The notes beneath the pieces are model-generated. The model saw nothing but the letters and a program-made list of their open reading frames with translations, made no database searches and was not told the DNA's origin. A stretch of DNA of 35,282 nt from an uncultured Candidatus Saccharibacteria bacterium (GTDB lineage Bacteria > Patescibacteriota > Minisyncoccia > Phycocordibacterales > UBA9973), in the NCBI GenBank assembly GCA_964591475.1, contig CAZQAX010000003.1, forward strand, positions 1 to 35,282, in the 5' to 3' direction. The translations under genes were made by a program, and so were the position numbers. This document shows positions 1 to 34,968 of this stretch, in pieces. Every line of letters begins with the position of its first letter. Within the stretch, counting starts at the first letter, position 1.

Positions 1-23
1 ATCTGATCTCTCAATTTTTACTA

Positions 24-52
24 AAGCCACTATTTAATTAGTGGCTTTTTTA
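24..52 (+). terminator. intrinsic terminator of the upstream (off-window) gene
   Basis: AGCCACTA/TAGTGGCT stem plus T-run. Confidence 0.75.
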
Positions 53-97
53 TTTCCTTAAAATACTCAGTCGAACTTCATCCCAAGTTCGGAGCAC
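47..97 (+). repeat. cassette boundary repeat, copy 1 (inverted repeat 71-92)
   Basis: TTTTTATTTCCTTAAAATACTCAGTCGAACTTCATCCCAAGTTCGGAGC immediately after terminator 24-52. Confidence 0.85.
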
Positions 98-126
98 TTG
101 ACAATTTAATAAATATACCTTATTAT
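98..126 (+). promoter_or_regulatory. class-A cassette promoter TTGACA-17-TATTAT
   Basis: Hexamers read directly at 98-103 and 121-126. Confidence 0.65.
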
Positions 127-152
127 ATAAACAAATAAGGCTCTTTAATATT

Positions 153-209
153 GGTTTTATTTAGGTTACCAAAGCAGGTCAAATTGGCCTTTTGTGGCAA
201 CTTAAATAT
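153..209 (+). promoter_or_regulatory. conserved 57-nt structured leader, copy 1
   Basis: Differs from 1317-1373 at 2 positions. Nested hairpins: outer 163-171/195-203, inner 176-180/186-190. Confidence 0.55.
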
Positions 210-220
210 AACTAAACAAG

Positions 221-547
221 ATGAAAAAGAATTATTTTTGGATGAGTATATCTCATTGGTTGGGTTTACCAATAACAATTACATTAGATAATAAAACAGA
301 GCGTGGGTATCTTTCTACGCCAAAAAATCAATCCGGAAATTTTTATTTGCATAATCGAAAAGATTCAAACCTGCTGTTAACAGGTAAAGCATCTGATGTA
401 ACCAGGGTTTCTCTTGCGCACCCAATACTGCAAGATGCCTGGGCTTTTTGTACAGATCCAGATGCTAGGGAGGTTTCAATCTTTAAACATCCAAGCGGTA
501 GGCCAATGTCTATTCGTGAGGCAAAACAAAAAGGACTAATACCTTAG
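221..547 (+). CDS. hypothetical small protein, cassette 1 (108 aa)
   Basis: ATG ORF from track. Own promoter at 98-126 and conserved leader. T-run follows the stop. No family recognised. Confidence 0.6.
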   Translation: MKKNYFWMSISHWLGLPITITLDNKTERGYLSTPKNQSGNFYLHNRKDSNLLLTGKASDVTRVSLAHPILQDAWAFCTDPDAREVSIFKHPSGRPMSIREAKQKGLIP

Positions 548-560
548 TGTTATAAAAATT

Positions 561-604
561 CCAGTTTACAAAACTAGTACGACGTATGTCTGCTGGTTTT
601 TTTT
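561..604 (+). terminator. weak hairpin plus T8 after cassette 1
   Basis: Only a 4-5 bp long-range stem (CCAG/CTGG). T8 at 597-604. Confidence 0.35.
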
Positions 605-650
605 ATTTCCCTAAAACGCTTATTCGAACTTCATCCCAAGTTCGGAGCCT
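597..650 (+). repeat. cassette boundary repeat, copy 2 (inverted repeat 624-645)
   Basis: Same consensus. TCGAACTT-CATCCC-AAGTTCGG is intact. Confidence 0.85.
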
Positions 651-651
651 C

Positions 652-685
652 AAAAAATAGCCTTATTCTGTAAGGTTATTTTTTA
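652..685 (+). terminator. intrinsic terminator between boundary copy 2 and promoter B1
   Basis: 10-bp stem 656-665/671-680, T-run. Confidence 0.7.
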
Positions 686-724
686 TTACCGTACTTAGAA
701 AATATTGTAAAGTTCGAACCTATT

Positions 725-752
725 TTGACATTTCTTGTGAATAATGTAGTAT
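725..752 (+). promoter_or_regulatory. class-B cassette promoter TTGACA-16-TG-TAGTAT
   Basis: 725-730 and 745-752. Same architecture at 1795, 2325 and 2868. Confidence 0.65.
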
Positions 753-778
753 ATTAGTAAATTAAATTAGTGTAAATT

Positions 779-1132
779 ATGTCAGTAGCACAAGCCCAAG
801 GAATTGTTCGCACCAGATTAGCTGAAGAAAAAAGAAAAGTTATTCTTGCTCAAATGCCTGAAAATATTCAGAACTTATGGAAAGAGTATAGAAGTCTCGG
901 TCACCCATACTATACGAGCAGTATGATTGAAAAGTTTATTATATATGTTGCTGCCCTGTATCTTGGAGTATTGCTTTTACTTAAGGGTAGGAAAATTAAA
1001 ATTAGGGAAATCTACCTTGATTTTTTGCAGCATATTGAAACTTCAAACAACAACATTAAAGAATTCTCTAAAAAGCCCGATATTCAATTGGTGATTAAGG
1101 CTTTTAAGGATAATAATGTTGCCTGGATATAA
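779..1132 (+). CDS. hypothetical small protein with one central TM segment, cassette 2 (117 aa)
   Basis: ATG ORF. Class-B promoter at 725-752, terminator at 1158-1182. Hydrophobic stretch FIIYVAALYLGVLLLL. Confidence 0.6.
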   Translation: MSVAQAQGIVRTRLAEEKRKVILAQMPENIQNLWKEYRSLGHPYYTSSMIEKFIIYVAALYLGVLLLLKGRKIKIREIYLDFLQHIETSNNNIKEFSKKPDIQLVIKAFKDNNVAWI

Positions 1133-1157
1133 AAATATAGATATCCTAAAAATTACT

Positions 1158-1182
1158 AACCCGTCAAATGGCGGGTTTTTTT
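1158..1182 (+). terminator. terminator of cassette 2
   Basis: CCCGTC/GGCGGG stem, T7. Confidence 0.8.
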
Positions 1183-1260
1183 ATTTCTCTAAAATACTCA
1201 ATCGAACTTCATCCCAAATTACCACTTTGCTAAGGCTACATCGGTACACAGTCGGAGAAG
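1176..1260 (+). repeat. cassette boundary repeat, copy 3, right arm displaced by a ~33-nt insertion (about 1218-1250)
   Basis: Left arm and loop are intact at 1202-1215. ..GTCGGAG resumes at 1251. Confidence 0.75.
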
Positions 1261-1262
1261 TA

Positions 1263-1291
1263 TTGACTTTTAAGGTAAAATATGCTATCAT
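1263..1291 (+). promoter_or_regulatory. class-A cassette promoter TTGACT-17-TATCAT
   Basis: 1263-1268 and 1286-1291. Aligns with 98-126. Confidence 0.65.
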
Positions 1292-1316
1292 ATACGCAAT
1301 AAGGTCTTTTAAATAT

Positions 1317-1373
1317 GGTTTTATTTAGGTTGCCAAAGCAGGTCAATTTGGCCTTTTGTGGCAACTTAAATAT
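1317..1373 (+). promoter_or_regulatory. conserved 57-nt structured leader, copy 2
   Basis: Same as 153-209. The outer stem is fully paired here (G at 1332 versus A at 168). Confidence 0.55.
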
Positions 1374-1382
1374 CACTATAAT

Positions 1383-1715
1383 ATGAAAATAGAACCCACT
1401 ATTCCTGTCCTATACACTGTATCCATTGCATCAAGCAAGTTTAGTAAATTATTCTTTGTATCCCGAATTCCTACACCTAATGAAAAAGAACACATATCGG
1501 TAGGTGTTGATTTACCTGAATTAGATTACATAAAGGTTCAATCAGTAAGACAGAATCTGCATAATATCTACAATCGTACGCGGGCAGACAATTATGAAAA
1601 CCGCCCAATCGATGAGGTCTTTGCTGTATTAGTAGAATATAGACCAAATGAAGAAACACGGGAAAGGGTTAAGAAACAGCTAATAGAAAAAGGCTGGAAG
1701 TCGTCCGGTAAGTAA
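1383..1715 (+). CDS. hypothetical small protein, cassette 3 (110 aa)
   Basis: The track ORF starts at TTG 1356. I chose ATG 1383 because it sits at the same position after the conserved leader as ATG 221 in cassette 1. Terminator at 1737-1775. Confidence 0.55.
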   Translation: MKIEPTIPVLYTVSIASSKFSKLFFVSRIPTPNEKEHISVGVDLPELDYIKVQSVRQNLHNIYNRTRADNYENRPIDEVFAVLVEYRPNEETRERVKKQLIEKGWKSSGK

Positions 1716-1736
1716 TCTTTAAATTATAAAACATAT

Positions 1737-1775
1737 AAAGCCCTTCAGAATATTAGTAATCTGAAGGGCTTTTTT
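1737..1775 (+). terminator. terminator of cassette 3
   Basis: 10-bp stem GCCCTTCAGA/TCTGAAGGGC, T5. Confidence 0.85.
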
Positions 1776-1794
1776 ATTTCTCTAAAACTCACCT
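1770..1794 (+). repeat. cassette boundary repeat, truncated copy (no inverted repeat)
   Basis: TTTTTTATTTCTCTAAAACTCACC then runs directly into the -35. Confidence 0.6.
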
Positions 1795-1822
1795 TTGACA
1801 TTTGGTGTAAATAATGTAGTAT
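1795..1822 (+). promoter_or_regulatory. class-B cassette promoter
   Basis: TTGACA 1795-1800, TG-TAGTAT 1815-1822. Confidence 0.65.
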
Positions 1823-1874
1823 TTGAGTAAATTAAATCAGATGATCCGACTGAATAAAACGGTACGTACTATAT

Positions 1875-2267
1875 ATGGAAACAACAATAAAATTTTACAT
1901 CAGTAAACAAAGGGGAAGCAAAGAACTTGGTTTTTATTTTTTTATTAAAACCAGTGCCCAAGAGAGTCGTACTTGCTATCTTTCAAAAAAAGAAAATCTT
2001 GCAAGTGTTATTAAAGATTTGTTTAATTCTTCAGTGAATAAACTTAATCCAGAAATAGATTATTTCAAGTTTAAGACTGTTTATAATATTGAATCATATA
2101 CAACTGGAAACGCAATTTTCGTCGTAGGAGAAGTTTTAAAAAAAAGGGAGCTCTTGTTTTTAAACGATTCGGTAATAGAAGTTAAGCCAATGCTTGAAGA
2201 GGATATAGATCTTTTTAACGAAGCTTTTGAAAGCTTACGCAATGGTAGTTTTGTTAAGACTTTGTAA
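1875..2267 (+). CDS. hypothetical small protein, cassette 4 (130 aa)
   Basis: ATG ORF. Class-B promoter at 1795-1822, hairpin terminator at 2276-2306. Confidence 0.6.
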   Translation: METTIKFYISKQRGSKELGFYFFIKTSAQESRTCYLSKKENLASVIKDLFNSSVNKLNPEIDYFKFKTVYNIESYTTGNAIFVVGEVLKKRELLFLNDSVIEVKPMLEEDIDLFNEAFESLRNGSFVKTL

Positions 2268-2275
2268 ATTTATAT

Positions 2276-2306
2276 AAAGGCTGTTCACAAAAGTTCAGCC
2301 TTTTAT
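2276..2306 (+). terminator. terminator of cassette 4
   Basis: AAAGGCTG/CAGCCTTT stem, interrupted T-tract. Confidence 0.6.
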
Positions 2307-2333
2307 TATTGCGAATTTCTACCTTTGACATTT
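2298..2333 (+). repeat. 36-nt terminator-to-promoter junction, copy 1
   Basis: GCCTTTTATTATTGCGAATTTCTACCTTTGACATTT, identical to 2841-2876. Confidence 0.9.
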
Positions 2334-2352
2334 TGGTTAAATAATGTAGTAT
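2325..2352 (+). promoter_or_regulatory. class-B cassette promoter
   Basis: TTGACA 2325-2330, TG-TAGTAT 2345-2352. Confidence 0.65.
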
Positions 2353-2377
2353 TTACTTGAATTTAAACGTACAAAAG

Positions 2378-2812
2378 ATGGAAAAACAAGAAATAGAATT
2401 TGAAGATTTTAAAGATACTTTAGTAAAGCATCGCACAGCATTGAAGGCAAGAGAAAAAGGATTTTATTGCATAACTCCTCACAGATTCTTAAATGAAAAA
2501 CAAATTGTAGGCGGGTGGATAGGTGGTAATACGCCAGAACCATCAAAAGAACAAATTGAGATTTATTTATCAAACCCAGAAGAATTACTGATTGCTCCAA
2601 CTGCGGGTGTTTTACATCAGTGGTTAAAAAGAATCCATAATATTTCAGTGCATACTGAGCCTGTTTATTCAGGTGTTCCTAAAATAGGCACGATATTTCA
2701 GGCTTATTTATTTTTTGAAAAAACAAAACGTGTAGATTTTACAAATGCCTACGCAGATGAAGCAGAAGCGTTTGAGGCTGGTATCTACGAGGCTCTTCAT
2801 AGGTTACCTTAA
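2378..2812 (+). CDS. hypothetical small protein, cassette 5 (144 aa)
   Basis: The track ORF starts at TTG 2357, which lies at or upstream of the predicted TSS of promoter 2325-2352. First ATG at 2378 preferred. Terminator at 2815-2850. Confidence 0.6.
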   Translation: MEKQEIEFEDFKDTLVKHRTALKAREKGFYCITPHRFLNEKQIVGGWIGGNTPEPSKEQIEIYLSNPEELLIAPTAGVLHQWLKRIHNISVHTEPVYSGVPKIGTIFQAYLFFEKTKRVDFTNAYADEAEAFEAGIYEALHRLP

Positions 2813-2814
2813 TA

Positions 2815-2850
2815 AAGGAGGCTGTTCGTACAAACGTTCGGCCTTTTATT
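2815..2850 (+). terminator. terminator of cassette 5
   Basis: AGGCTGTTCG/CGTTCGGCCT imperfect stem, TTTTATT. Confidence 0.6.
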
Positions 2851-2876
2851 ATTGCGAATTTCTACCTTTGACATTT
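2841..2876 (+). repeat. 36-nt terminator-to-promoter junction, copy 2
   Basis: Identical to 2298-2333. Confidence 0.9.
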
Positions 2877-2895
2877 GGTTTAAATACTGTAGTAT
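2868..2895 (+). promoter_or_regulatory. class-B cassette promoter
   Basis: TTGACA 2868-2873, TG-TAGTAT 2888-2895. Confidence 0.65.
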
Positions 2896-2919
2896 TTGGT
2901 TAAATTAAATGTATAGAAA

Positions 2920-3351
2920 ATGAAACTAGTACCTATTGTTTTAATAAACGGTAAGACCGTTAATCTTCCAACGGAGGTCGAAATCGCTAATTTTAGAAAT
3001 CACCTTGGTGGAGCAAGAGCTTGGTTTTTTGATAATGGTTTAGAAAAAAATATTCCATATGTAATTAAACAGTACAATGTCCGCACAGGATTAGATCACG
3101 AGATTTTACAGGAAAAGTATTTTTTAAAAAAGATTTCTTGTCCTAAAAACTCTATGCTACTTGGGGTGTTGTTTGACAAAGAATACAACCCTAATTTTTT
3201 CTTACTTGAACCAGAGGGTGAAGGCGTAAGTCAAACATTATGTATTGTTTTAGTTAATGAAGAAGAAGAGGTTCCTGACGATTATGCTTATCACTCTACA
3301 TCACTAAAGCCCAATTTCGACACAAAACATTGTGTTTACAAAATTGAGTAA
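2920..3351 (+). CDS. hypothetical small protein, cassette 6 (143 aa)
   Basis: ATG ORF. Class-B promoter at 2868-2895, terminator at 3369-3399. Confidence 0.6.
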   Translation: MKLVPIVLINGKTVNLPTEVEIANFRNHLGGARAWFFDNGLEKNIPYVIKQYNVRTGLDHEILQEKYFLKKISCPKNSMLLGVLFDKEYNPNFFLLEPEGEGVSQTLCIVLVNEEEEVPDDYAYHSTSLKPNFDTKHCVYKIE

Positions 3352-3368
3352 AAAATCAATTACCTTAA

Positions 3369-3399
3369 GGGCTTGTCATTATATGGCAGGCCTTTTTTA
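3369..3399 (+). terminator. terminator of cassette 6
   Basis: 8-bp stem with two G-U pairs, T6. Confidence 0.75.
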
Positions 3400-3445
3400 T
3401 TTGCCTTCCAATATACTCAGTCGAACCTCATCCCAAGTTCGGGGT
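3393..3445 (+). repeat. cassette boundary repeat, copy 5 (inverted repeat 3421-3442, one mismatch)
   Basis: TTTTTTATTTGCCTTCCAATATACTCAGTCGAACCTCATCCCAAGTTCGGGG. Confidence 0.8.
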
Positions 3446-3451
3446 CGTGTA

Positions 3452-3481
3452 TTGACAAGGGGGTGATAATTATGTTATCTT
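3452..3481 (+). promoter_or_regulatory. class-A-like cassette promoter TTGACA-18-TATCTT
   Basis: Aligns with the 98-126 and 1263-1291 promoters and is preceded by the boundary repeat. Confidence 0.5.
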
Positions 3482-3544
3482 TATAAAAGATTTACTTAAC
3501 CTGGTAGCCTGAGGGATTGTCCCAAAACGGCTGAACGAATTTGT

Positions 3545-3762
3545 AAAAAACTTTGTTTTACACAAAGACACATTGGACGCAGGTAAGGTTGTTTTTTATA
3601 GTTTAGACTTTTTACGCAGTTTTTGCCTAAGGAACAAAAAGTGGCCGAGTCGAAAATAGCTAAACGTTTTGTAAGGGAGTCATAGATGTTTTTATTAATG
3701 TTAGCGCTAACGCTAATACTGACACTAAGACTAAAGCCTAATAAAACCAAAAAAACAGTTGG
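3545..3762 (-). ncRNA. speculative antisense RNA opposite the small ORF and its SD
   Basis: Minus-strand TTGACC (3793-3798)-17-TATTTT (3770-3775). Minus-specific hairpin CTTTGT/ACAAAG plus T6 at 3545-3567. All signals are weak. Confidence 0.2.
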
Positions 3763-3787
3763 ATCCATAAAAATAATAAGGCTCTGA
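3686..3787 (+). CDS. candidate 33-aa hydrophobic/basic peptide MFLLMLALTLILTLRLKPNKTKKTVGSIKIIRL (type I toxin-like)
   Basis: Hand-translated; below the track length cutoff. AAGGGAG at 3673-3679 lies 6 nt before the ATG. Hydrophobic N-terminal half and Lys-rich tail. Sits inside a promoter-to-terminator unit with no long + strand ORF. Confidence 0.3.
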   Translation: MFLLMLALTLILTLRLKPNKTKKTVGSIKIIRL

Positions 3788-3807
3788 CAATAGGTCAACC
3801 TCTACGA

Positions 3808-3840
3808 AAAGCCTCGAAACCTTAATCGGGGCTTTTTTTA
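3808..3840 (+). terminator. terminator of cassette 7
   Basis: AGCCTCGA/TCGGGGCT stem, T7. Confidence 0.8.
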
Positions 3841-3860
3841 TTTTCCCTTAAAATATGTAT
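3833..3860 (+). repeat. cassette boundary repeat, truncated terminal copy
   Basis: TTTTTTTATTTTCCCTTAAAATATG after terminator 3808-3840. The array ends here. Confidence 0.55.
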
Positions 3861-9388: not shown

Positions 9389-9904
9389 TTAAAAGTTTAT
9401 GCCCAGTATTTTTAACACAATACCGGCCAGTGGGTCAGCCGATGTGCCGTAAACCATAACACCGCCCAACAGACCGGTAACTGTAATAGTGATTAGTCCA
9501 ACAAAGGCTAGCACACCTGAAACTACTTTGTGGGTTAAAAGATCTTTTGCAAAAGTTAAAAACTTTACAATTTGCGGTAAGTTTAATTTTTGGGTAATTA
9601 TTGGTATTAATAAAATTAATACTTCACCCACCAGTAATAGTGCATATACCCAAGTTGAAACGCTAGCAAACGTTGAGTGCATTTCAACTAATTGATGATT
9701 CGGGTTAACTAGTTCTTCAGCCAATTCGCCAGTAGAGCTTGCAACAAATGCGCCTAGTACACCAACAAGTAATAAGGCTCGTTGTATTTGCGCCCAGGCA
9801 ACATTAGGCAACCATTTATAAAAAGGGACTATTTTAACAAATGAATAAATTAATAAAAATGCAATAGGGAAGTGCACAAAAATTGGATGTATGTTGTAAG
9901 TCAT
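9389..9904 (-). CDS. DUF2231-like polytopic membrane protein
   Basis: HPIFVHFPIAF motif at the N-terminus. ATG 9904 lies 7 nt after TATACT. The longer track start 9997 would overlap the divergent gene. Confidence 0.65.
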   Translation of the reverse strand: MTYNIHPIFVHFPIAFLLIYSFVKIVPFYKWLPNVAWAQIQRALLLVGVLGAFVASSTGELAEELVNPNHQLVEMHSTFASVSTWVYALLLVGEVLILLIPIITQKLNLPQIVKFLTFAKDLLTHKVVSGVLAFVGLITITVTGLLGGVMVYGTSADPLAGIVLKILGINF

Positions 9905-10591: not shown

Positions 10592-10747
10592 ATGGCAAAA
10601 AGACAAGGTTCTATCGGTAAATTAAAACACCCAAAAGGTCCACATAAAACAGTTAAGCGATTAGCTGTTAAAAAAACAATGCTAGCTGTAAAGGCCGCTA
10701 AAAAGCTTCGCGGTAAAGTATCAAAAAAGGTCACAAAGAAAGCCTAA
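10592..10747 (+). CDS. small lysine-rich basic protein (51 aa) MAKRQGSIGKLKHPKGPHKTVKRLAVKKTMLAVKAAKKLRGKVSKKVTKKA
   Basis: Hand-translated; below the track cutoff. TGaTATACT promoter at 10547-10555 and clean terminator at 10753-10781 bracket it. Confidence 0.6.
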   Translation: MAKRQGSIGKLKHPKGPHKTVKRLAVKKTMLAVKAAKKLRGKVSKKVTKKA

Positions 10748-10752
10748 AAATT

Positions 10753-10781
10753 AAAAAACTACTTTAATAAAGTAGTTTTTT
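10753..10781 (+). terminator. terminator of the small basic protein gene
   Basis: 8-bp stem ACTACTTT/AAAGTAGT, T-run. Confidence 0.8.
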
Positions 10782-11291: not shown

Positions 11292-11320
11292 AGTACTTGA
11301 ACTATTCTATAAAATTAAAT

Positions 11321-12376
11321 ATGACAAAAAAAGACAAGATTTTTTACTTTTCTGTATGCGCACTGGTTATGCTAAGTTTCATTTTTGGATTTAAAGCTAA
11401 AGCCCAGTGCACAAAAAACATCGCCACTTTTTCAGGTGGTGGTAAATTGGAGCTTATCAAGCATGCAACTGACTTTCCCTCAACAGGGAAGACGACTTTT
11501 TACTACAAGTTCTGGGCTTCAACGCCCAAAGACTTAAGCCATTTTGATGTATTTGTCGGCACGTGCCTTACTAAATTTTATGGTGGGGGCACGTACACAA
11601 ACACTGTAGACACCAGTGGTTTAGACTACAACTCGTGTTGGAAGCTGGGCCAAGATGGTTCAGTATCTGGTAAGCCATGGGTCATGAAATATGACTGTGG
11701 TGTTAAAAAAGGTGATTCGTTACAAGGATTCTTTGTATTAAACGATACTTTTGGTGTCACTAAAAATGACGCGCTGTTAAAGTATGGTACAACTGTTGTT
11801 TACAATAGTATTTGTGCGCCACACATTCAGTGCGCTACGCCCGTTACCTTTGGCCATATTTCAGTCAAGAACGTTAAAAATTCTGACGAAGTCAGCTTTA
11901 CAACGTTCACAGAAACAAACAATGATACGTTCATTGTTGAACAATCTTACGATGCTATTCAGTGGAAAAATGTTGGTGGTGTAAAGGGTAAACGTAATTC
12001 GTCTGAAAGGGTTGATTACTCAGTAAAGGTTAATTTATACGACCATGCGAACAATGTTCGCTATTATCGTGTAAAACAAATTGATTTTGATGGCAAGTTT
12101 GATTATTCGCCGGTCGTTAAAATCAGTAGCGAACCAATTGTTGGTTTTTACCCAAACCCAGCTAATGCGGGTCAAAGCGTTATTTTTAACCTTACTAATT
12201 TTGATGAGTTCAGTGAATCCAAACTTTTAGTGATTAGCCCATTAGGTGAGGTTGTTTTCACCAAAGATTTCACCGGTAGTAACATTTTTGAGGTCAACGA
12301 TTTAACCAAGGGGGTGTACTGTGTGCAAATTGCTTCGCGACACTTTACCAAGGCGCAAAAACTAGTCATCAAGTAA
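11321..12376 (+). CDS. secreted protein with T9SS-type (Por) C-terminal sorting domain
   Basis: Signal peptide MTKKDKIFYFSVCALVMLSFIFGFKAKA. C-terminus FYPNPANAGQSV.F......LLVISPLGEVV....L.KGVYCVQI......QKLVIK matches the TIGR04183-like pattern. It is preceded by an F.VE.S.D...W......YYRVKQIDFDGK..YSPVV module. Confidence 0.8.
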   Translation: MTKKDKIFYFSVCALVMLSFIFGFKAKAQCTKNIATFSGGGKLELIKHATDFPSTGKTTFYYKFWASTPKDLSHFDVFVGTCLTKFYGGGTYTNTVDTSGLDYNSCWKLGQDGSVSGKPWVMKYDCGVKKGDSLQGFFVLNDTFGVTKNDALLKYGTTVVYNSICAPHIQCATPVTFGHISVKNVKNSDEVSFTTFTETNNDTFIVEQSYDAIQWKNVGGVKGKRNSSERVDYSVKVNLYDHANNVRYYRVKQIDFDGKFDYSPVVKISSEPIVGFYPNPANAGQSVIFNLTNFDEFSESKLLVISPLGEVVFTKDFTGSNIFEVNDLTKGVYCVQIASRHFTKAQKLVIK

Positions 12377-18344: not shown

Positions 18345-20132
18345 ATGGAAATCAGAAACATTGCAATTATTGCGCACGTTGACCATGGTAAAACAACTTT
18401 GGTTGACTCTATAATGCGCCAAATGGGTATGACCGCCGAGGGTGCATCGATGGATTCAAATGATCTTGAAAAAGAGCGTGGAATCACTATTTATGCTAAA
18501 AACACATCTTTATTTTACAAAGATACAAAAATTAATATTGTCGACACACCGGGTCACGCCGATTTCGGTAGTGAAGTTGAGCGAGTACTTCGCTCAATTG
18601 ATTCAGTTCTATTGCTAGTTGACGCCCAAGAGGGTCCAATGCCACAAACTCGTTTCGTTTTAAAAAAATCTTTAGAGTTAGGTATTCAACCAATTGTGGT
18701 TATCAACAAAATCGATAAACCAGCCGCAAACCCTGCGCGTGTTCATGATGAAGTTTTAGAACTATTTATCGAACTTGGCGCCAAAGACGAACAAATCGAA
18801 TTCAAAACAATTTACGCTATTGGTCGCGACGGTGTTGCAATACGCAATCTTGAAGACGAACGCAAAGACACGACTCCGCTACTTGATTTAATACTAGAAG
18901 AAGTCAAACCAGCCAACAAAGACACCAGCCCAACTGACGAACCAAAAGCTCAAGTTTTTAACCTAGGCTATGACAATTTCTTGGGTCGTTTAGGTATCGT
19001 TCGTGTATACAGCGGCGAATTAATTAGTGGCAGTATGATGACCACAATTTCACCTTATACTGAAACTAAAACAGCTCGCATTACAAAACTGTTTACATTT
19101 AATGGGCTTGAACGCAAAGAAGTTCAAAGCCTAGTAGCTGGCGATATTGGTATTGTGGCTGGCTTTACCGATGTTTCAATTGGTGAGACTATCGTCAAAG
19201 ACGCTACAACCGAACCCATGCCTGCAATTGCAATTGATGAACCAACAATTACACTTAACTTTTTAGTTAACGATTCACCGTTTGCTGGACGCGAGGGTAA
19301 ATTCGTTACTTCTCGTCAAATTCGCGATCGTCTAGAACGCGAGCTTGAAATCAACGTGGGCCTAAAAGTTACTTTTGACCAAGACGTATTTTATGTTTCA
19401 GGCCGAGGCGAACTACACATTTCAGTATTGCTTGAACAAATGCGCCGCGAAGGTTACGAACTGCAAGTTTCTCAACCACAAGTTATTACCAAAATTGAAG
19501 ATGGTCACAAAATGGAGCCTTTTGAGGAAGTTACAATCGATGTGCCAACTGAATTCTCTGGCGCAGTTATCGAAAAACTTACAAAACGCAAAGGCTTGAT
19601 AATGAACATGTTTGAAAAAGAGGGTAGCACTAGAATCTTAATCGAAATGCCAACTCGTGGGCTATTAGGTTACCGCAGTCAATTCGTTGTTGACACAAAA
19701 GGTGAAGGCATACTTGCATCACGCTTTGTCGGTTTTCGTGCATATGCTGGCGAGATTGAAAAACGTGATGTTGGTTCTATGATCTCAATGATCACGGGTG
19801 CCGCCGCAGGTTATGCACTAGCTAACCTACAAGATCGTGGTATTTTATACATTGGTCATGCCGAGGCGCTATACGAAGGTATGGTTATCGGTAACACATC
19901 AAAAGGCGAAGACATGATTGTTAACGCAGTTAAAGGTAAGCAATTAACCAACGTTCGAGCATCTGGAACCGATGATGCTATATACCTAAAACCACCAATG
20001 ACTTTGTCGATCGAGCGTGGGCTTGAGGTTATGAACGCTGATGAATACCTAGAAATTACACCAAAATCAGTTCGGTTACGTAAAAAATATTTAACTGAAA
20101 CTGAACGAAACAAAGCCGGCCGATCTAAGTAA
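18345..20132 (+). CDS. typA: translational GTPase TypA/BipA
   Basis: [29 protein letters not shown] motifs and full-length architecture. ATG 18345 lies 7 nt after TGtTAGACT; the track GTG 18339 is less likely. Confidence 0.95.
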
Positions 20133-20235: not shown

Positions 20236-21267
20236 ATGGCACAACAAATAACATTTAAACCAAAACAGGTCACTAAAAAGATTCTTTCGAATCTACAACA
20301 AAGGGCATATGATGTTGTCTTTCACCGATTCGGTTTGGGCGACGATGCCACACCAAAGACCCTAGAGTCTATTGGTCAAAGCTATGGAATTACTCGTGAA
20401 CGCGTTCGTCAAATCGAAAACGCAGCACTAACAACAATTCGAAAATCAGACGCCTTTAAAAACGAACAAAAAACATTCGAAGAACTAAAAGGTATGCTTG
20501 ACGAATATGGCGTACTAGTTAAAGAAGAAGACTTCCTATCTCATGTTTCAAAAGACAAAAACGTTCAAAACCATATACACTTCTATTTAGTTTTGTCAGA
20601 CTATTTTACAAAGCACAAAGAAGATGAAGATTTTCATTCACGTTGGACTGTTGATTCAGGTGTATCTGAAAAAGTTCACTCTTCGTTAAAGAACCTATAC
20701 TCGTCACTATCTGATACTGAACTTCTATCTGAAATCGAAATCGTTGACCGCTTCCTTAAAACAATGAAAGACTTGTCAGAGGAATACCGCAACGAAGAAA
20801 TCGCAAAACGTTGGTTGGGTCTATCTAAAAAAATTGGTAAAAATCCACTAGGTGAATGGGGTAAAACTGATTCATCAAATGTTAAAACTCGTGGAATTCG
20901 CGACTATGCATACCTAGTTATGCGCAAACACGGCTCACCACTTCACTTTCGTGAAGTTGCTAAAAAAATCCAAGACACTTTTGGTAAAAAGACTCATGTA
21001 GCAACATGTCACAATGAACTAATCAAAGACAAACGTTTTGTTTTGGTTGGCCGAGGCTTCTATGCTCTGTCTGAATGGGGTTACAAACCGGGTATTGTTC
21101 GCGAAGTTATTCGTGACATCATCAAAAAATATGGCCCAATGTCAAAAGACGACATAATCGAACACGTTATGAAGGAACGATATTTGAAGAAAAACACAAT
21201 TATCGTCAATCTACAAAACGCCAAATACTTTAAAAAGAACAAGCAAGACCTATACGTTAACGCTTAA
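20236..21267 (+). CDS. sigma-70 region-4-like HTH plus C-terminal HARE-HTH domain protein
   Basis: N-terminus LESIGQSYGITRERVRQIE resembles sigma region 4.2. C-terminus H..E.....RFVLVGRGFYALSEWGY resembles the HARE-HTH of RpoE/delta-type proteins. Confidence 0.7.
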   Translation: MAQQITFKPKQVTKKILSNLQQRAYDVVFHRFGLGDDATPKTLESIGQSYGITRERVRQIENAALTTIRKSDAFKNEQKTFEELKGMLDEYGVLVKEEDFLSHVSKDKNVQNHIHFYLVLSDYFTKHKEDEDFHSRWTVDSGVSEKVHSSLKNLYSSLSDTELLSEIEIVDRFLKTMKDLSEEYRNEEIAKRWLGLSKKIGKNPLGEWGKTDSSNVKTRGIRDYAYLVMRKHGSPLHFREVAKKIQDTFGKKTHVATCHNELIKDKRFVLVGRGFYALSEWGYKPGIVREVIRDIIKKYGPMSKDDIIEHVMKERYLKKNTIIVNLQNAKYFKKNKQDLYVNA

Positions 21268-30743: not shown

Positions 30744-32450
30744 ATGACATCGAACGAAATCAGGGCTAGATTTTTAGACTTTTTCGCAAAGCCTGAAAAT
30801 GGTGGCCACAAAATAATTCCATCATCAAGCCTTGTGCCAGAAGGCGATATTTCGGTATTGTTTACAACTGCTGGAATGCAACAATTTAAACCCTACTATT
30901 TGGCTCCAGACAACGCAACCAAAGACTTTGGCACCAAGAATGTCGTAACAGTACAAAAATGCGTTCGTACAGGCGATATCGAAGAGGTAGGCGATGCAAC
31001 ACATCTTTCATTTTTCGAAATGCTTGGTAATTTCTCTTTTGGCGGGTATGGACGACGCGAAGCTATTACATATGCATATGATTTTATAACAAAGGAAATG
31101 GGTTTAAAAATTTCTTATGTTACATATTACAAAGGCGAGGGTGTAGTACCAGCCGACATTGAATCCAAAAATATTTGGGCAGAACTTGATCCAGCTCTTG
31201 AAATCCGCGAAGATGGCGCCGATGTTTTCTGGGGTCCAACAGGTTTAAATGGTCCGTGTGGCCCTACAACCGAAATTTATTGTAAGAATGCTTTAGGTGA
31301 GGATGTAGAAATTTGGAATATAGTTTTCAATGAATATTTTTGTGATGGGTCACGCGAGCAACTAGACAAAGGCGAGGCAACGCTTAAAAAATTGGACATC
31401 CTTGGTATCGATACAGGTATGGGACTCGAGAGATTAGTATCAGTAATTCAAAAAGAGGAAAGTGTTTATGATACAGATTTATTTAATGGCGAAAAAACTA
31501 AAGAAGAACGCATTGTAGCTGATCATATTCGTGCAGCAGTTTTTATGATATCCGATGGCACAAAACCATCTAATACAAGCTCTGGATATGTACTGCGTCG
31601 CTTAATTCGCCGAGCTAAATTAAAAATGCGGAAAATGAGTGATGAAGAATATAACAAAAATTCAGACGGGTCTGTATTTTATGAAAAAATTAATAAAGTT
31701 TTTGAAATATTTAAAAATTTAGAATATTTAAATAATCAAGAAGATAAGGTTTTCAAAATAATTCAAGAAGAAGAGTTAAAATTTAGAAATACCCTAGAAT
31801 CAGGCCTTAAAGAATTCGAAAAAGGTATTGATCCATTCGTTTTAGCAACTACATATGGTTTTCCAATCGAATTGACACTTGAACTTGCAAAGGAAAAGGG
31901 AATTCAGGTTGATCTAGAAGATTTCAATAAAAAAATGGCCGAGCATCAAAAATTGTCACAAACTGCAAGTGCTGGTATGTTCAAGGGCGGGCTCGCAAAT
32001 CACAACGAACAAACTATCAAATTGCACACTGCACACCATTTATTATTGGCAGCGTTGCAACAAGTACTGGGTAAAAGCGTTAAACAACGGGGTAGTAACA
32101 TTACCGAAGAAAGACTTCGTATAGATTTCATGTTCGAGCGCAAAATGACCGATGAAGAAAAAAAGCAGGTTGAAGACATTGTAAATGAAAAAATTAAGGC
32201 TGGTTTGGCCGTAGTTCGCAAAGAAATGCCACTAGTAGAAGCCGAGAAGCTTGGTGCCGAGATGGAGTTTGGCGCCAAATACCCCGAAATGGTTTCGGTT
32301 TATTCAATCGAACAAGACGGCACACCTTTTAGTATCGAATTCTGCGGTGGACCACACATAAATAACACTAACGAACTAGGACATTTTAAAATTCAAAAAG
32401 AAGAAGCCGTCGCGCAAGGCATTCGTCGCATAAAAGCTATTCTAGAATAA
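30744..32450 (+). CDS. alaS: alanine--tRNA ligase, short form lacking the C-Ala domain
   Basis: Class II catalytic N-terminus (FTTAGMQQFKP), editing-domain HTAHHLL and CGGPH, ends ..GIRRIKAILE. 568 aa. Confidence 0.9.
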   Translation: MTSNEIRARFLDFFAKPENGGHKIIPSSSLVPEGDISVLFTTAGMQQFKPYYLAPDNATKDFGTKNVVTVQKCVRTGDIEEVGDATHLSFFEMLGNFSFGGYGRREAITYAYDFITKEMGLKISYVTYYKGEGVVPADIESKNIWAELDPALEIREDGADVFWGPTGLNGPCGPTTEIYCKNALGEDVEIWNIVFNEYFCDGSREQLDKGEATLKKLDILGIDTGMGLERLVSVIQKEESVYDTDLFNGEKTKEERIVADHIRAAVFMISDGTKPSNTSSGYVLRRLIRRAKLKMRKMSDEEYNKNSDGSVFYEKINKVFEIFKNLEYLNNQEDKVFKIIQEEELKFRNTLESGLKEFEKGIDPFVLATTYGFPIELTLELAKEKGIQVDLEDFNKKMAEHQKLSQTASAGMFKGGLANHNEQTIKLHTAHHLLLAALQQVLGKSVKQRGSNITEERLRIDFMFERKMTDEEKKQVEDIVNEKIKAGLAVVRKEMPLVEAEKLGAEMEFGAKYPEMVSVYSIEQDGTPFSIEFCGGPHINNTNELGHFKIQKEEAVAQGIRRIKAILE

Positions 32451-32549: not shown

Positions 32550-33683
32550 ATGCATACCGAGGGCAAAAATATTTTAGTCATCGATATCGGTTCGGGCTCA
32601 ATCGGCTCGGCGGTAGTTTCTATTGGTAAAAAAAATGCAATTACTTTTGCAAATAGATACGAATTAGAATTTGGCGAAAAAACTGATTTTAAATTATTGT
32701 TAGACAAGGTAAACCTAGGTATTAAACACTGTCTTGAAAAAATACCCAATAAAGCTATAGCCGAAGTTCATATGTTCATGCACTCGCCATGGCACACAGT
32801 TACTACTAAAAAAATCACACTGAACGAACCTAAAGATTTTAAAATAACAGAAGACCTTATTGAACAAGCCTCACAAAACGAAATAGTAGACTTTATGGCA
32901 AATGCACGTGCAAATTTTCCAGGATTTGAAGACTTGATGATTATTGAATCTACCGTACCTGAAATAAAGATAAACGGCTATATTGTCGACAAACCTTTTG
33001 GTAAAAAGGTAAAAGCCTGCGAATTTTTAATGTCACTAGCGCTTGCCCCAAAAGACATAATCCATAACATAACAAACATTTGCGAATCTGTTTTAAAAAT
33101 AAATAAAAAAGATATTAAATTTCATTCAGCAACAACGGCTTTTACACATCTATGCTCCAGTTTATATAACGAAAATAATGCTATCATGATTATAGACGTA
33201 GGCTCTGAAATAACTGATATTAGTTTAGTTAAAAATAAAGCCTTGTCTTTTGGTGTATCTTTTGTTGGTGGTTCGCATGATATTATTAGAAAAATTAGCC
33301 AACTATACAAAACCAACTTTACCGACTCTGAAAGTCTAGCTTTTGCAGCATTTTCAGGTGTTGGGGCTCAAGACAAAACACTTCAAATGGAAACAGAGCT
33401 GGGCCCTTTATGTACGGTTTGGCAAAAATCAATATCTGATTCATTGGTAAAAATTTCTAAATTCGAAGCAGTACCAAAAAAAATAATTTTAATCTGCGAA
33501 GACTCAAACACTGCTTCTTGGTACGCAAAATCAATTAGTTCTGACACGTTTACCCAATATTTACGTACCGAGGGTAAGTTTCAAACAATAACACCCTCAA
33601 TCGAAGCCTTAAAAGCATATATAAACATGGACAATGTTTCATATATAGACACCAGTCTTTGCTTATTATGCATAACAGTATAG
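32550..33683 (+). CDS. actin-like ATPase (FtsA/PilM-like)
   Basis: Phosphate-binding motifs VIDIGSGSIG and IIDVGSEITDIS. ATG lies 8 nt after TGtTATAAT. Confidence 0.65.
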   Translation: MHTEGKNILVIDIGSGSIGSAVVSIGKKNAITFANRYELEFGEKTDFKLLLDKVNLGIKHCLEKIPNKAIAEVHMFMHSPWHTVTTKKITLNEPKDFKITEDLIEQASQNEIVDFMANARANFPGFEDLMIIESTVPEIKINGYIVDKPFGKKVKACEFLMSLALAPKDIIHNITNICESVLKINKKDIKFHSATTAFTHLCSSLYNENNAIMIIDVGSEITDISLVKNKALSFGVSFVGGSHDIIRKISQLYKTNFTDSESLAFAAFSGVGAQDKTLQMETELGPLCTVWQKSISDSLVKISKFEAVPKKIILICEDSNTASWYAKSISSDTFTQYLRTEGKFQTITPSIEALKAYINMDNVSYIDTSLCLLCITV

Positions 33684-33690
33684 TTAAATT

Positions 33691-34968
33691 ATGAAAAAAT
33701 CTGACGAAAAAATAAAAATAAGCGACGTAACAGTAGGTAAAGATATTAGTACCGTACCTAAAAACGTGTCGGTTAAAATACTGGCCCACAAAGACTTTGC
33801 ACCCCTTGATGAAGAAATCGTTAATGTCGAACGCAAAGACCGCAAAAGTAAAATTTTTACCATAGTCGGTATTTGTATAGTTGTAATTTTTGGCTTACTT
33901 TACTTGGGTCATATGTTTTCGTCAGCAACTGTTTATATTGAAAAAACAACGGCGCCATTTAGTTTTTCAAATACCGTTATTACAGCAAACCAGTCTGAAA
34001 CGAGTGAATTACCATTTACTGTTGTCGAGGTAACCGATACGCACCACGAATCAATCGTGCCAGACATGTTAAATTCTTCACCTAAAAAGGCTACAGGTAG
34101 CGTTGTCGTATACAATACTAATTCAAAATCTAAAATAAACTTAAAAAAAGGCACTGTTTTCATTGCCAACAATAATATTCGCTTTTTATCTGACAGTGCA
34201 GTTGTGTTGCCTGGTTATACCACCGACGCAAATAAACAAATCATACCGGGCCAGGTTATCGTTAAAATAACCGCTGAAAAGACAGGCTCGGCTTCAAATA
34301 TTGGTAATTCTGACCTAACATTGGCTAATTACCAAAAACAAAAGACTAAAATATATGCGAAAACCAATGAAATAATAGCAGGTGGTGCTGATCAAATGGC
34401 TTATGGGCTTTCAGAACCGCTAAAAAAATCAGTTTCTGACAAAATTGACGAGGCATTGAAAAGATCTTTGTTTATAAAAGCCGGAGCCGAAATTCCAAGC
34501 GAATATATTTTATATTTAGACATGTTTGTATATAGTCCAAAAAATCTAATTATTTCAGGCACACCACAAACATTAGATGTTTCCAAAGAAGCTTCACTTA
34601 TTGCATATGTAATTAAAAAACAAGACATTGAAAAACTTATAAAGAATCATTTAACCGTAGAGTCGCCGATTAACCCTCAATATCTAGGCATTGAAAACCT
34701 TGTTGTTAAAATGGTCGCAACACCAAATGAACTACTTAACCCGCAAACACTGCAGCTATCTTTTTCGGGTTCAGGTAAGGTTGTTTCGTACGTAGACACA
34801 ACTGGCTTGTCTAAAAAACTTTCAAACCTAAACATTGTAAACGCAAGAAAGATGCTGGATGAAATAAAAAGTCTAAAAAGCTACGATATAAAAGTGAGTC
34901 CTGGCTATACATGGCTAATGCCTAAAAATTCAAAAAGGATAAAGATTGTTGACGTAAATAATAATTAA
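33691..34968 (+). CDS. hypothetical single-pass membrane protein (425 aa)
   Basis: Starts 8 nt after the upstream stop. TM segment IFTIVGICIVVIFGLLYLGHMF, then a large beta-rich ectodomain. Confidence 0.75.
   Translation: MKKSDEKIKISDVTVGKDISTVPKNVSVKILAHKDFAPLDEEIVNVERKDRKSKIFTIVGICIVVIFGLLYLGHMFSSATVYIEKTTAPFSFSNTVITANQSETSELPFTVVEVTDTHHESIVPDMLNSSPKKATGSVVVYNTNSKSKINLKKGTVFIANNNIRFLSDSAVVLPGYTTDANKQIIPGQVIVKITAEKTGSASNIGNSDLTLANYQKQKTKIYAKTNEIIAGGADQMAYGLSEPLKKSVSDKIDEALKRSLFIKAGAEIPSEYILYLDMFVYSPKNLIISGTPQTLDVSKEASLIAYVIKKQDIEKLIKNHLTVESPINPQYLGIENLVVKMVATPNELLNPQTLQLSFSGSGKVVSYVDTTGLSKKLSNLNIVNARKMLDEIKSLKSYDIKVSPGYTWLMPKNSKRIKIVDVNNN

Follow-up and report, generated by a model that had tools for sequence, protein, structure and literature searches.

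Genomic islands of the CIME type (cis-mobilizable elements) are linked to tRNA genes and form by the tandem accretion of integrase-less elements, as described in the literature on these and on integrative and conjugative elements (ICE), and phage “morons” and host-takeover modules of the SPO1 type are autonomous units of promoter, small open reading frame (ORF) and terminator that stand in series. Arrays of small genes are also known from integrons, from the integrase-less clusters of attC sites called CALINs, and from the rAID-1 loci of Bacteroidales, whose intergenic repeats have been called “reminiscent of integrons” (bioRxiv 10.1101/471110). The locus described here, positions 1-3860 of a 35,282-nt stretch of contig CAZQAX010000003.1 from an uncultured Candidatus Saccharibacteria bacterium (this whole stretch is referred to as the window), is an array of seven same-strand units whose border element consists of a 25-nt imperfect palindrome, M1, and a shorter motif, M2. 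No paper on such arrays in Candidate Phyla Radiation (CPR) bacteria, and none with the M1 sequence, was found in the literature.

The preferred explanation is that the units are mobile, self-expressing cassettes at a chromosomal hot spot which are exchanged by recombination at conserved borders, a reading held at about even confidence. It draws on the anatomy of the array, on the conservation of its non-coding parts across the CPR, on the same cargo being found with different neighbours and promoters, and on direct repeats that flank a cassette. On this reading, positions 1-3860 are the distal end of an array of variable accessory-gene content that lies on a chromosome of the Patescibacteria (CPR).

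Anatomy, spread and proposed exchange of the cassettes

All seven units lie on the plus strand, and in each a promoter close to the consensus is combined with a cargo and a terminator. The promoters, at 98, 725, 1263, 1795, 2325, 2868 and 3452, match TTGACA/TATAAT at 10-11 of 12 positions and reach a density of 1.8 per kb, compared with 0.46 per kb per strand in the remaining window; eight hairpins with T-tracts fold as terminators, with energies between -11 and -20 kcal/mol and z-scores from -3.4 down to -6.4. Six cargo ORFs encode proteins of 108, 117, 110, 130, 144 and 143 aa that are mutually unrelated (BLASTP, every pair E > 0.01). The non-coding parts, by contrast, are repeated: the class-B promoter block occurs in four copies, with 89% identity over 80 nt at the class-B junction, the class-A leader in two copies of 81 nt with 89% identity (134-214 versus 1298-1378), and an exact 36-mer is common to two junctions (2298-2333 = 2841-2876). 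The M1 and class-B patterns are confined to positions 1-3860 of the window, where shuffled sequence is expected to give none. GC content is a little lower within the array, and the same array recurs in independent assemblies.

A first-pass annotation made from the sequence had described the seven units with their own promoters and terminators, the unrelated cargo and the shared 36-nt segment, all of which hold, and it had rightly expected the array to continue upstream, as positions 1-72 of the contig L001 carry the 3' end of one more ORF (further loci are likewise designated by L numbers). Other parts of that description need amendment. A boundary of about 50 nt had been placed after six terminators; copies are present at 46, 599, 1177 and 3396, three of them full and one interrupted, but sites 1770 and 3836 hold only its first 15-20 nt. 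Promoter classes A and B do not alternate strictly as had been supposed, and the promoter at 3452 lacks the class-A leader, so that “class A” is heterogeneous. The last unit had been described as having no long ORF; it carries a 33-aa ORF with a Shine-Dalgarno sequence at 3686-3787.

The spread of M1 was followed in a species-level scan (one genome per species) for its 19-nt core, which returned 23 loci, a count that underestimates the distribution of M1 because the pattern left out its common A7 variant. Fourteen of the 23 were set aside as chance hits in coding sequences of unrelated, non-CPR phyla, since their match falls short of the full motif. Eight are metagenome-assembled genomes (MAGs) of Patescibacteria, labelled Paceibacterota or Saccharibacteria, with M1 in the same setting: a terminator lies upstream of M1 and a promoter or terminator downstream in all eight, and the 25-mer is complete or has at most two mismatches in seven, only the first 21 nt being intact in L027. 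In L016 (Candidatus Lloydbacteria) the variant TCGAACTTCATCCCAAATT is found, as at window position 1202 and at L035 1153, with the rest of M1 absent. Eight further M1 loci come from metagenome contigs. The identical 25-mer is present in the CPR MAG loci L006, L009, L010, L011 and L020 and in the metagenome loci L029-L033; when mismatches are allowed, L006 has six copies, L035 five, and L020, L023, L031 and L039 three each, and arrays of 2-6 copies are found in MAGs labelled Paceibacterota, Saccharibacteria and Patescibacteria. The other modules have spread as well: the class-B promoter also occurs in L009, L010, L035 and L041, while L035 and L043 contain the class-A leader; the terminator type TERMB is found in L009, L012, L027, L031, L035 and L043, and M1 joined to the small terminator T2 in L012 and L035.

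Between genomes, the non-coding modules are 82-100% identical, whereas shared coding DNA reaches 66-75% (DUF1428 74.7%, TypA 66-69%, the fifth cargo gene, w5, 73-75%). The usual pattern of conservation is thus reversed, which the first-pass annotation had proposed and which can now be given as measured values. Matches of 82-94% between genomes also document reuse of upstream sequence, at least 80% over at least 50 nt, ahead of non-homologous genes. Within the data at hand, the ORFs were not seen to recur in one order as core genes of the lineage, nor the border and promoter motifs to be generic, nor the cargo proteins to be paralogues of one family.

A related layout was observed in L023 (167-2240), where three units share M1 and about 250 nt of spacer in the same order (109-nt and 81-nt repeat families; a hairpin module followed by a promoter of class A' with its leader) ahead of different ORFs. 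The last of these units continues with a small Cys-rich ORF, and the gene after it is, judged by eye, presumably that of ribosomal protein L25.

The w5 cassette is found with changed neighbours. L043 carries it with 94% identity over the stretch that runs from the class-B promoter to the terminator (window 2338-2853); the homology stops at the T-tract, past which lie M1, another ORF behind a class-A promoter and leader, and a MaoC cassette. Homologues of w5 stand behind a class-A' promoter within an M1 array in L039, behind a class-B promoter next to tRNA-Asn in L041, and alone with their own promoter in L037. L035, from the same metagenome as the window contig, shares its terminal 125 nt with L001, after which comes an array that differs from that of the window and has at least eight cassettes; L035 would be a strain variant or else a second array. 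The earlier expectation that cargo would differ behind conserved flanks is borne out by both L043 and L035. In L011, the border occurs as a direct repeat of 45 nt on both sides of a single small cassette, and a convergent core gene lies opposite the second copy.

The cargo proteins of the window are mostly orphans. None of the six belongs to a family in Pfam or PADLOC, a SUKH-3 match reached E 0.18 only and is not significant, and in PHROGs only w5 has a match (phrog_12005, E 6e-10, function unassigned), with a further weak match to a Cellulophaga phage ORF. Ten relatives of w5 were found and five of the sixth protein (w6) among 1.8 billion representative proteins, and the fourth (w4) finds only itself among 5.8 billion protein clusters. 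The AlphaFold2 model of w5 has a mean confidence (pLDDT) of 65.5 and gave only weak Foldseek matches resembling double-stranded RNA-binding domains (E >= 0.02), which were treated as uninformative. A likeness to orphan immunity or anti-defence genes, suggested earlier, finds no counterpart in these searches, as no defence or immunity family was matched in Pfam, PHROGs or PADLOC. In other loci the cargo includes NUDIX, GNAT, deaminase, dehydrogenase, GrpB, NYN, nucleotidyltransferase, zeta-toxin-like kinase, MaoC and RelB proteins, a stand-alone protein like the C-terminal domain of the RNA polymerase alpha subunit (alpha-CTD) and, in one cassette, a protein that we take by eye to be PhnB-like. 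Cargo homologues in other genomes neighbour ordinary accessory enzymes and toxin-antitoxin-like genes. Such a mix is typical of cassette arrays and small islands.

Related arrays start just past tRNA-Asn (L034/L020, L031, L041) or tRNA-Glu (L010) and in the same orientation; the window itself contains no tRNA gene. In L031, L034 and L041, one composite of about 200 nt comes after both the tRNA 3' end and M1. It runs from a terminator through a piece of the tRNA 3' end in inverted orientation and a direct pseudo-tRNA fragment, whose last letters are GGGAGCA, to a small terminator and M2. As M1 ends in GGAGCA, like tRNA-Asn, and is followed by the same composite, it appears to stand in the place of a tRNA 3' end. 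This position would match what is expected for repeated insertion at a tRNA-type attachment site, and is followed as a lead only. It speaks against M1 as an actual tRNA remnant that it is not a copy of a resident tRNA and matches no Rfam tRNA model; M1 is also identical between genomes whose tRNA-Asn ends differ. The composites were located at 3060-3285, 1955-2200 and 1320-1560 of L031 (all minus strand), at L034 6240-6425 and at L041 9695-9950; their inverted fragment has an internal hairpin, and the direct pseudo-tRNA fragment reads ..CCTGTAAGG..GATATCCCTACCCTGGGAGCA. The tRNA genes of L010, L020, L031, L036 and L041 have TAnnAT-like boxes mostly 0-3 nt ahead of the mature 5' end, too close for the standard spacing between -10 box and start, and CCA is mostly unencoded.

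Recombination, regulation and other explanations

In the proposed mechanism, a cassette comprises a border, one of a few conserved promoters of the sigma-70 type with a conserved leader, an unrelated small gene and a terminator of one of a few conserved types, the full form of the border being box, 6 nt, M1, small terminator and M2. A cassette with one border copy would enter at a resident border copy and thereby come to have direct repeats on both sides; insertion repeated beside a tRNA gene would build a head-to-tail array, and recombination between conserved borders would lead to the gain, loss and reshuffling of cassettes. The terminators would insulate neighbours so that every gene is expressed separately. 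An unlinked recombinase could catalyse these steps, or else RecA following natural transformation, of which Saccharibacteria are capable (PMC10633639). We infer the act of recombination, its enzyme and the transcription of the border from the arrangement of the sequences.

Several results weigh against this explanation. No recombinase gene was found in the 35-kb window, in the gene tables of L037, L039 and L041 (±10 kb), or among the ORFs of the remaining loci as far as scanned, and neither circular nor empty-site forms were seen. The clean breakpoints of L043 and L035 lie just past the terminator T-tract and outside M1, which leaves M1 unproven as the crossover point, and four of the seven junctions in the window are without M1. 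The contigs all break at one node about 70 nt upstream, so that the start of the array was not recovered, and the 125 nt common to L001 and L035 may only be an overlap of the assembly graph. The M1 hairpin shows no covariation above that of shuffled controls among 24 variants and is conserved by sequence, for which a protein operator or an RNA function could account without any recombination.

In a more specific form, the CPR would possess a capture system of its own, an analogue of integrons with full expression units as cassettes, a tRNA-like M1/M2 site and a recombinase encoded elsewhere; this is a tentative proposal, doubted more than it is believed.

A purely regulatory role of the borders, the main rival explanation, is possible and rather unlikely. 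Box, M1 and terminator would in this case form a small RNA (sRNA) of about 65 nt or a stabilising 5' hairpin, a CPR-wide transcription factor would use the 3' half of M1 together with M2 as its operator or UP-like site, and the array would be a set of co-regulated accessory genes. Its mosaic structure would need no dedicated cassette mechanism and would arise only by ordinary homologous recombination and by gene conversion among promoters that resemble one another (“mobile promoters”). The border consensus, for which 37-41 distinct copies were compared within the window and at related loci, counts among the grounds for the preferred explanation and in part also fits this one. It consists of a T-rich tract, an nAnnAT box, exactly 6 nt (wSyCAT) and then M1, TCGAAC(T/A)TCATCCCAAGTTCGGAGC. 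Counted from M1 nt 1, A is found at -11 in 32 of 37 copies, A at -8 in all 37 and T at -7 in 32; these statistics give the box the geometry of a -10 hexamer, with a predicted transcript start (+1) at M1 nt 1. A small terminator comes within a few nt of M1 in about 18 copies, and a TTGACA-type -35 lies 2-11 nt downstream in about 16 (both numbers being tallies of the copy listing). M1 and T2 fold as two clean hairpins, which together look like a unit of about 65 nt. One-sided changes in the M1 stem are G-U compatible on the plus strand only, and there are two compensatory cells.

M2, (CCTTAGTAG)AAGTTCGAACCTA, comes after the terminator of M1 and directly ahead of the next gene's promoter, with over 13 copies across L006, L012, L027, L031, L034 and L039; it looks like the 3' half of M1, to whose 5' arm it is complementary. 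In keeping with a regulatory role, the motif AAGTTCGRA is found 2-6 nt ahead of the -35, whether as part of M1 or of M2, and in the split M1 at 1202, which has about 30 nt within it, the 3' remnant GTCGGAG (1251-1257) is nevertheless retained next to the promoter. In the preferred explanation, too, the 3' half of M1 and M2, which abut the -35, probably also serve the promoter. The reuse of promoters is documented (PMC3575422), and one array contains a stand-alone alpha-CTD-like protein. This 145-aa protein (PF03118, E 1e-11; L035 2067-2504, plus strand) is encoded between M1 copies, inside an array that runs on the other strand, and is a candidate DNA-binding partner for the border and promoter elements.

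The long form of M1 in L039 (79 nt; 9803-9881 and 10682-10760, plus strand) retains the closing stem, which again favours a structure: TCGAAC/GTTYGG closes a cloverleaf-like fold of three hairpins, of which the second copy reaches -32 kcal/mol (z -5.5). Neither ARAGORN nor the Rfam tRNA model matched it.

Against a regulatory role alone, the terminal M1 copies at L011 3445, in L027, in L030 and at L035 2585 have no co-directional gene to regulate, and the single cassette of L011 lies between direct repeats. The commonest form of M1 is an 8-6-8 palindrome with pair 7-16 unpaired in 18 of 24 variants, and with covariation no higher than in shuffled controls a “structured RNA” is not proven for M1. 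At gathering score, M1, the class-A leader and unit 7 have no match in Rfam, and permissive E-value scans gave, besides the genuine tRNA genes of related loci, only chance-level matches in terminator regions; a search of the window for targets of the M1 loop (TTGGGATGA) found only the reverse strand of M1 itself. The half-sites of M1 are spaced by N10, unlike those of the LexA box in these genomes, which are spaced by N4. M1 as a LexA box was rejected on this spacing (CGAAC-N10-GTTCG versus GAAC-N4-GTTC), as the spacers of LexA boxes are rigid (PMC8565304) and lexA in L039 has GAACAATCGTTC, of the GAAC-N4-GTTC type, upstream. There the palindrome (TGTGAACAATCGTTCACA, 18638-18653) overlaps the promoter of lexA (18666-19235), downstream of which lies an IMS (Y-family polymerase) gene; it is an SOS box of the Gram-positive type in a CPR genome. 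A cassette role and a regulatory role of the borders do not exclude each other.

An integron-type system or CALIN, in which the composite from M1 to M2 (about 95-110 nt) would be an attC-like site and the integrase would be encoded elsewhere, is very improbable. The stretch 618-726 can fold as a single long imperfect hairpin on either strand, with outer arms TTCGAAC/GTTCGAA that carry the triplets AAC and GTT, inner arms AAGT-CGG/CCG-ACTT and a variable tip; its length is within the attC range, the types of cargo resemble those of integron cassettes, and CALINs with no integrase nearby are common (PMC4889954). However, the inner pairing is not seen in the composites of L006 and L039, many borders are the 25-nt M1 alone or lack M1, and every cassette brings a promoter with it, which few integron cassettes do. 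No integrase was found with Phage_integrase among the large ORFs of the 35-kb window and the gene tables of L037, L039 and L041, and integrons are absent from very small genomes. The consensus of attC outer arms in the integron literature is RYYYAAC/GTTRRRY, which the outer arms found here do not fit.

Least probable of all is an origin from a phage or another mobile element of which the array would be the remnant, whether as an early-gene or host-takeover module, a likeness drawn in the first-pass annotation, or as a row of morons. Phage early regions typically consist of small orphan ORFs that have a strong promoter and a terminator, w5 has the PHROGs and Cellulophaga phage matches given above and the GC content of the array is slightly lower, but there are no phage genes in the 35-kb window, IMG/VR contains no match to M1, its core, the class-B promoter or the w5 relatives, blastn of the array against phage and plasmid collections gave no match, and related arrays sit between core genes.

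Features along the window

The window opens with the final two codons and stop of the upstream cassette ORF (1-6), for which the 72 nt further upstream in L001 read ...LKDMDMISKLLEKGYTILYIKSNLI*, and with its terminator (23-48; -14.1 kcal/mol, z -5.9). The -10-like box TAAAAT (59-64, recognised by the position statistics on 37 copies) precedes by 6 nt M1 copy 1 (TCGAACTTCATCCCAAGTTCGGAGC, 71-95), which was found by pattern scan as the 25-mer that is identical in other loci. Two nt past it begins the class-A promoter TTGACA-17-TATTAT (98-126), followed by the class-A 5' leader with its long hairpin (134-214, z -3.8; copies at 1298-1378 and in L035 and L043), cargo 1 (221-547, 108 aa, no family) and the terminator of cassette 1 (570-600). 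The second border is the full form, with box TAAAAC (612-617), M1 copy 2 (624-648), T2 directly past it (652-687; -20.8 kcal/mol, z -6.0) and M2 (AAGTTCGAACCTA, 710-722) 2 nt ahead of the next -35; it leads to class-B promoter 1 (725-752), cargo 2 (779-1132, 117 aa, one hydrophobic segment, no family) and a terminator (1158-1177). The third begins with box TAAAAT (1190-1195) and the interrupted M1 copy 3 (1202-1257: 5' part 1202-1220, insert of about 30 nt, 3' remnant 1251-1257), and continues with class-A promoter 2 (1263-1291), the second leader (1298-1378; -31.2 kcal/mol, z -6.3), cargo 3 (1383-1715, 110 aa counted from ATG) and a terminator (1737-1769; -19.8 kcal/mol).

Three class-B cassettes follow. 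Class-B promoter 2 (1795-1822) stands ahead of cargo 4 (1875-2267, 130 aa), an orphan by protein-cluster search, and of a terminator of type TERMB (..CAGCCTTTTATTATT, 2276-2303); promoter 3 (2325-2352) ahead of cargo 5, which is w5 (2378-2812, 144 aa), and TERMB copy 2 (2816-2847); and promoter 4 (2868-2895) ahead of cargo 6 (2920-3351, 143 aa) and a terminator (3367-3395). The fourth M1 copy (3421-3445, three mismatches) with its box CAATAT (3409-3414) leads to the promoter of unit 7, TTGACA-18-TATCTT (3452-3481), and the array as recovered ends with the terminator of this unit (3806-3837), after which the first ~20 nt of the border follow at 3836-3855.

The hairpin of the class-A leader (151-212 and 1315-1376; L035 ~1010-1075, minus strand; L043 ~603-665) is stable (z -3.8 to -6.3) and stops a few nt before the start codon, with a variable tip and no Shine-Dalgarno sequence; its copies show a compensatory change from A-U to G-C. 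The ORF of unit 7 encodes a hydrophobic, basic peptide, MFLLMLALTLILTLRLKPNKTKKTVGSIKIIRL, with the Shine-Dalgarno sequence AAGGGAG and a 5' untranslated region of about 200 nt, a layout that resembles and is typical of type I toxin genes. A 100-aa reverse-strand ORF at 3496-3798 is probably spurious.

The remaining window is ordinary chromosome, with genes for TypA, MltG/YceG, MnmA, alanyl-tRNA synthetase (AlaRS), PepF, HPF, a Pif1 helicase and a histidine kinase, and no phage genes. Its MltG shares 90% identity or more with a protein from a MAG labelled Candidatus Paceibacterota, and the DUF1428 and HPF genes are shared in synteny with the locus of a Saccharibacteria MAG; the host is accordingly one of the Patescibacteria (CPR). 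Some genes on the plus strand are of interest in their own right. The protein encoded at 11297-12376 has a Por_Secre_tail domain for type IX secretion sorting (E 9e-8), unusual outside Bacteroidota and the FCB group, and that at 20236-21267 (343 aa) combines sigma-70 region 4 with a HARE-HTH domain. AlaRS (30744-32450) has 568 aa, compared with about 870 aa usual in bacteria, and seems to lack the C-terminal part. Close to where the window ends, two neighbouring ORFs (32550-34968) have weak PilM/FtsA-like and Baseplate_J/GlxA-like matches.

Significance and comparison with known systems

CPR bacteria have genomes of about 1 Mb with few recognised mobile elements and much gene turnover at the strain level. 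A border conserved at the nucleotide level across lineages labelled Saccharibacteria and Paceibacterota would offer a concrete route for this turnover, and the array points to an undescribed way of shuffling accessory genes in CPR bacteria. If this is true, ultra-small genomes could trade accessory genes between CPR lineages by means of their own capture system. M1 and M2 form a new cis-element for which a recombinase, a transcription factor or an RNA are candidate partners, and dozens of orphan proteins are flagged as a mobile accessory pool that is probably relevant to an epibiotic lifestyle. For the newly tractable Saccharibacteria, the promoters, leaders and terminators would be a native set of CPR parts, possibly together with a landing site.

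The array is like integrons and CALINs (Cury et al. 2016, PMC4889954) in that small, unrelated and mostly orphan accessory genes are arranged head to tail on one strand, in its imperfectly palindromic border sites, in the occurrence of the same cassette with varying neighbours, and in that an integrase can be absent nearby. It is unlike them in the strong promoter and terminator that all seven units possess, whereas integron cassettes are promoterless and depend on the common promoter Pc, and in an M1 that is kept in sequence (25 of 25 nt across lineages), whereas attC sites are kept by structure only. Neither IntI nor attI was found here, and the tiny host genomes fall in the size class reported to be without integrons (PMC4889954). 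An attC site folds as R''-L''...L'-R' over 57-141 nt; the stretch 618-726 gives an attC-like hairpin with AAC/GTT arms, but the composites of L006 and L039 are unlike it.

With the rAID-1 loci of Bacteroidales (bioRxiv 10.1101/471110), the array has in common long co-directional series of small genes, repetitive intergenic sequences and skewed GC content; those loci are, however, defined by an XerD-like recombinase at the 5' end and by homology to type VI secretion system (T6SS) immunity genes, neither of which was found in an array whose start was not recovered. The likeness to CIME-type islands lies in the start of related arrays right after tRNA-Asn or tRNA-Glu, in units that are non-autonomous and in the partial repeats of tRNA 3' ends between cassettes (L031, L034, L041), and the difference in units of only 0.5-0.9 kb with one gene each and in an M1 that is no copy of the resident tRNA end. 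Like mobile promoters (Nijveen et al. 2012, PMC3575422), the upstream sequences are at least 80% identical over at least 50 nt ahead of non-homologous genes, but here promoters, leaders, terminators and the border motif are reused together and in ordered tandem arrays. The units also differ from phage morons and SPO1 modules, as no phage context was found and the modules are common to the chromosomes of different CPR lineages. The array is therefore set apart from each of its closest known counterparts by at least one defining feature.

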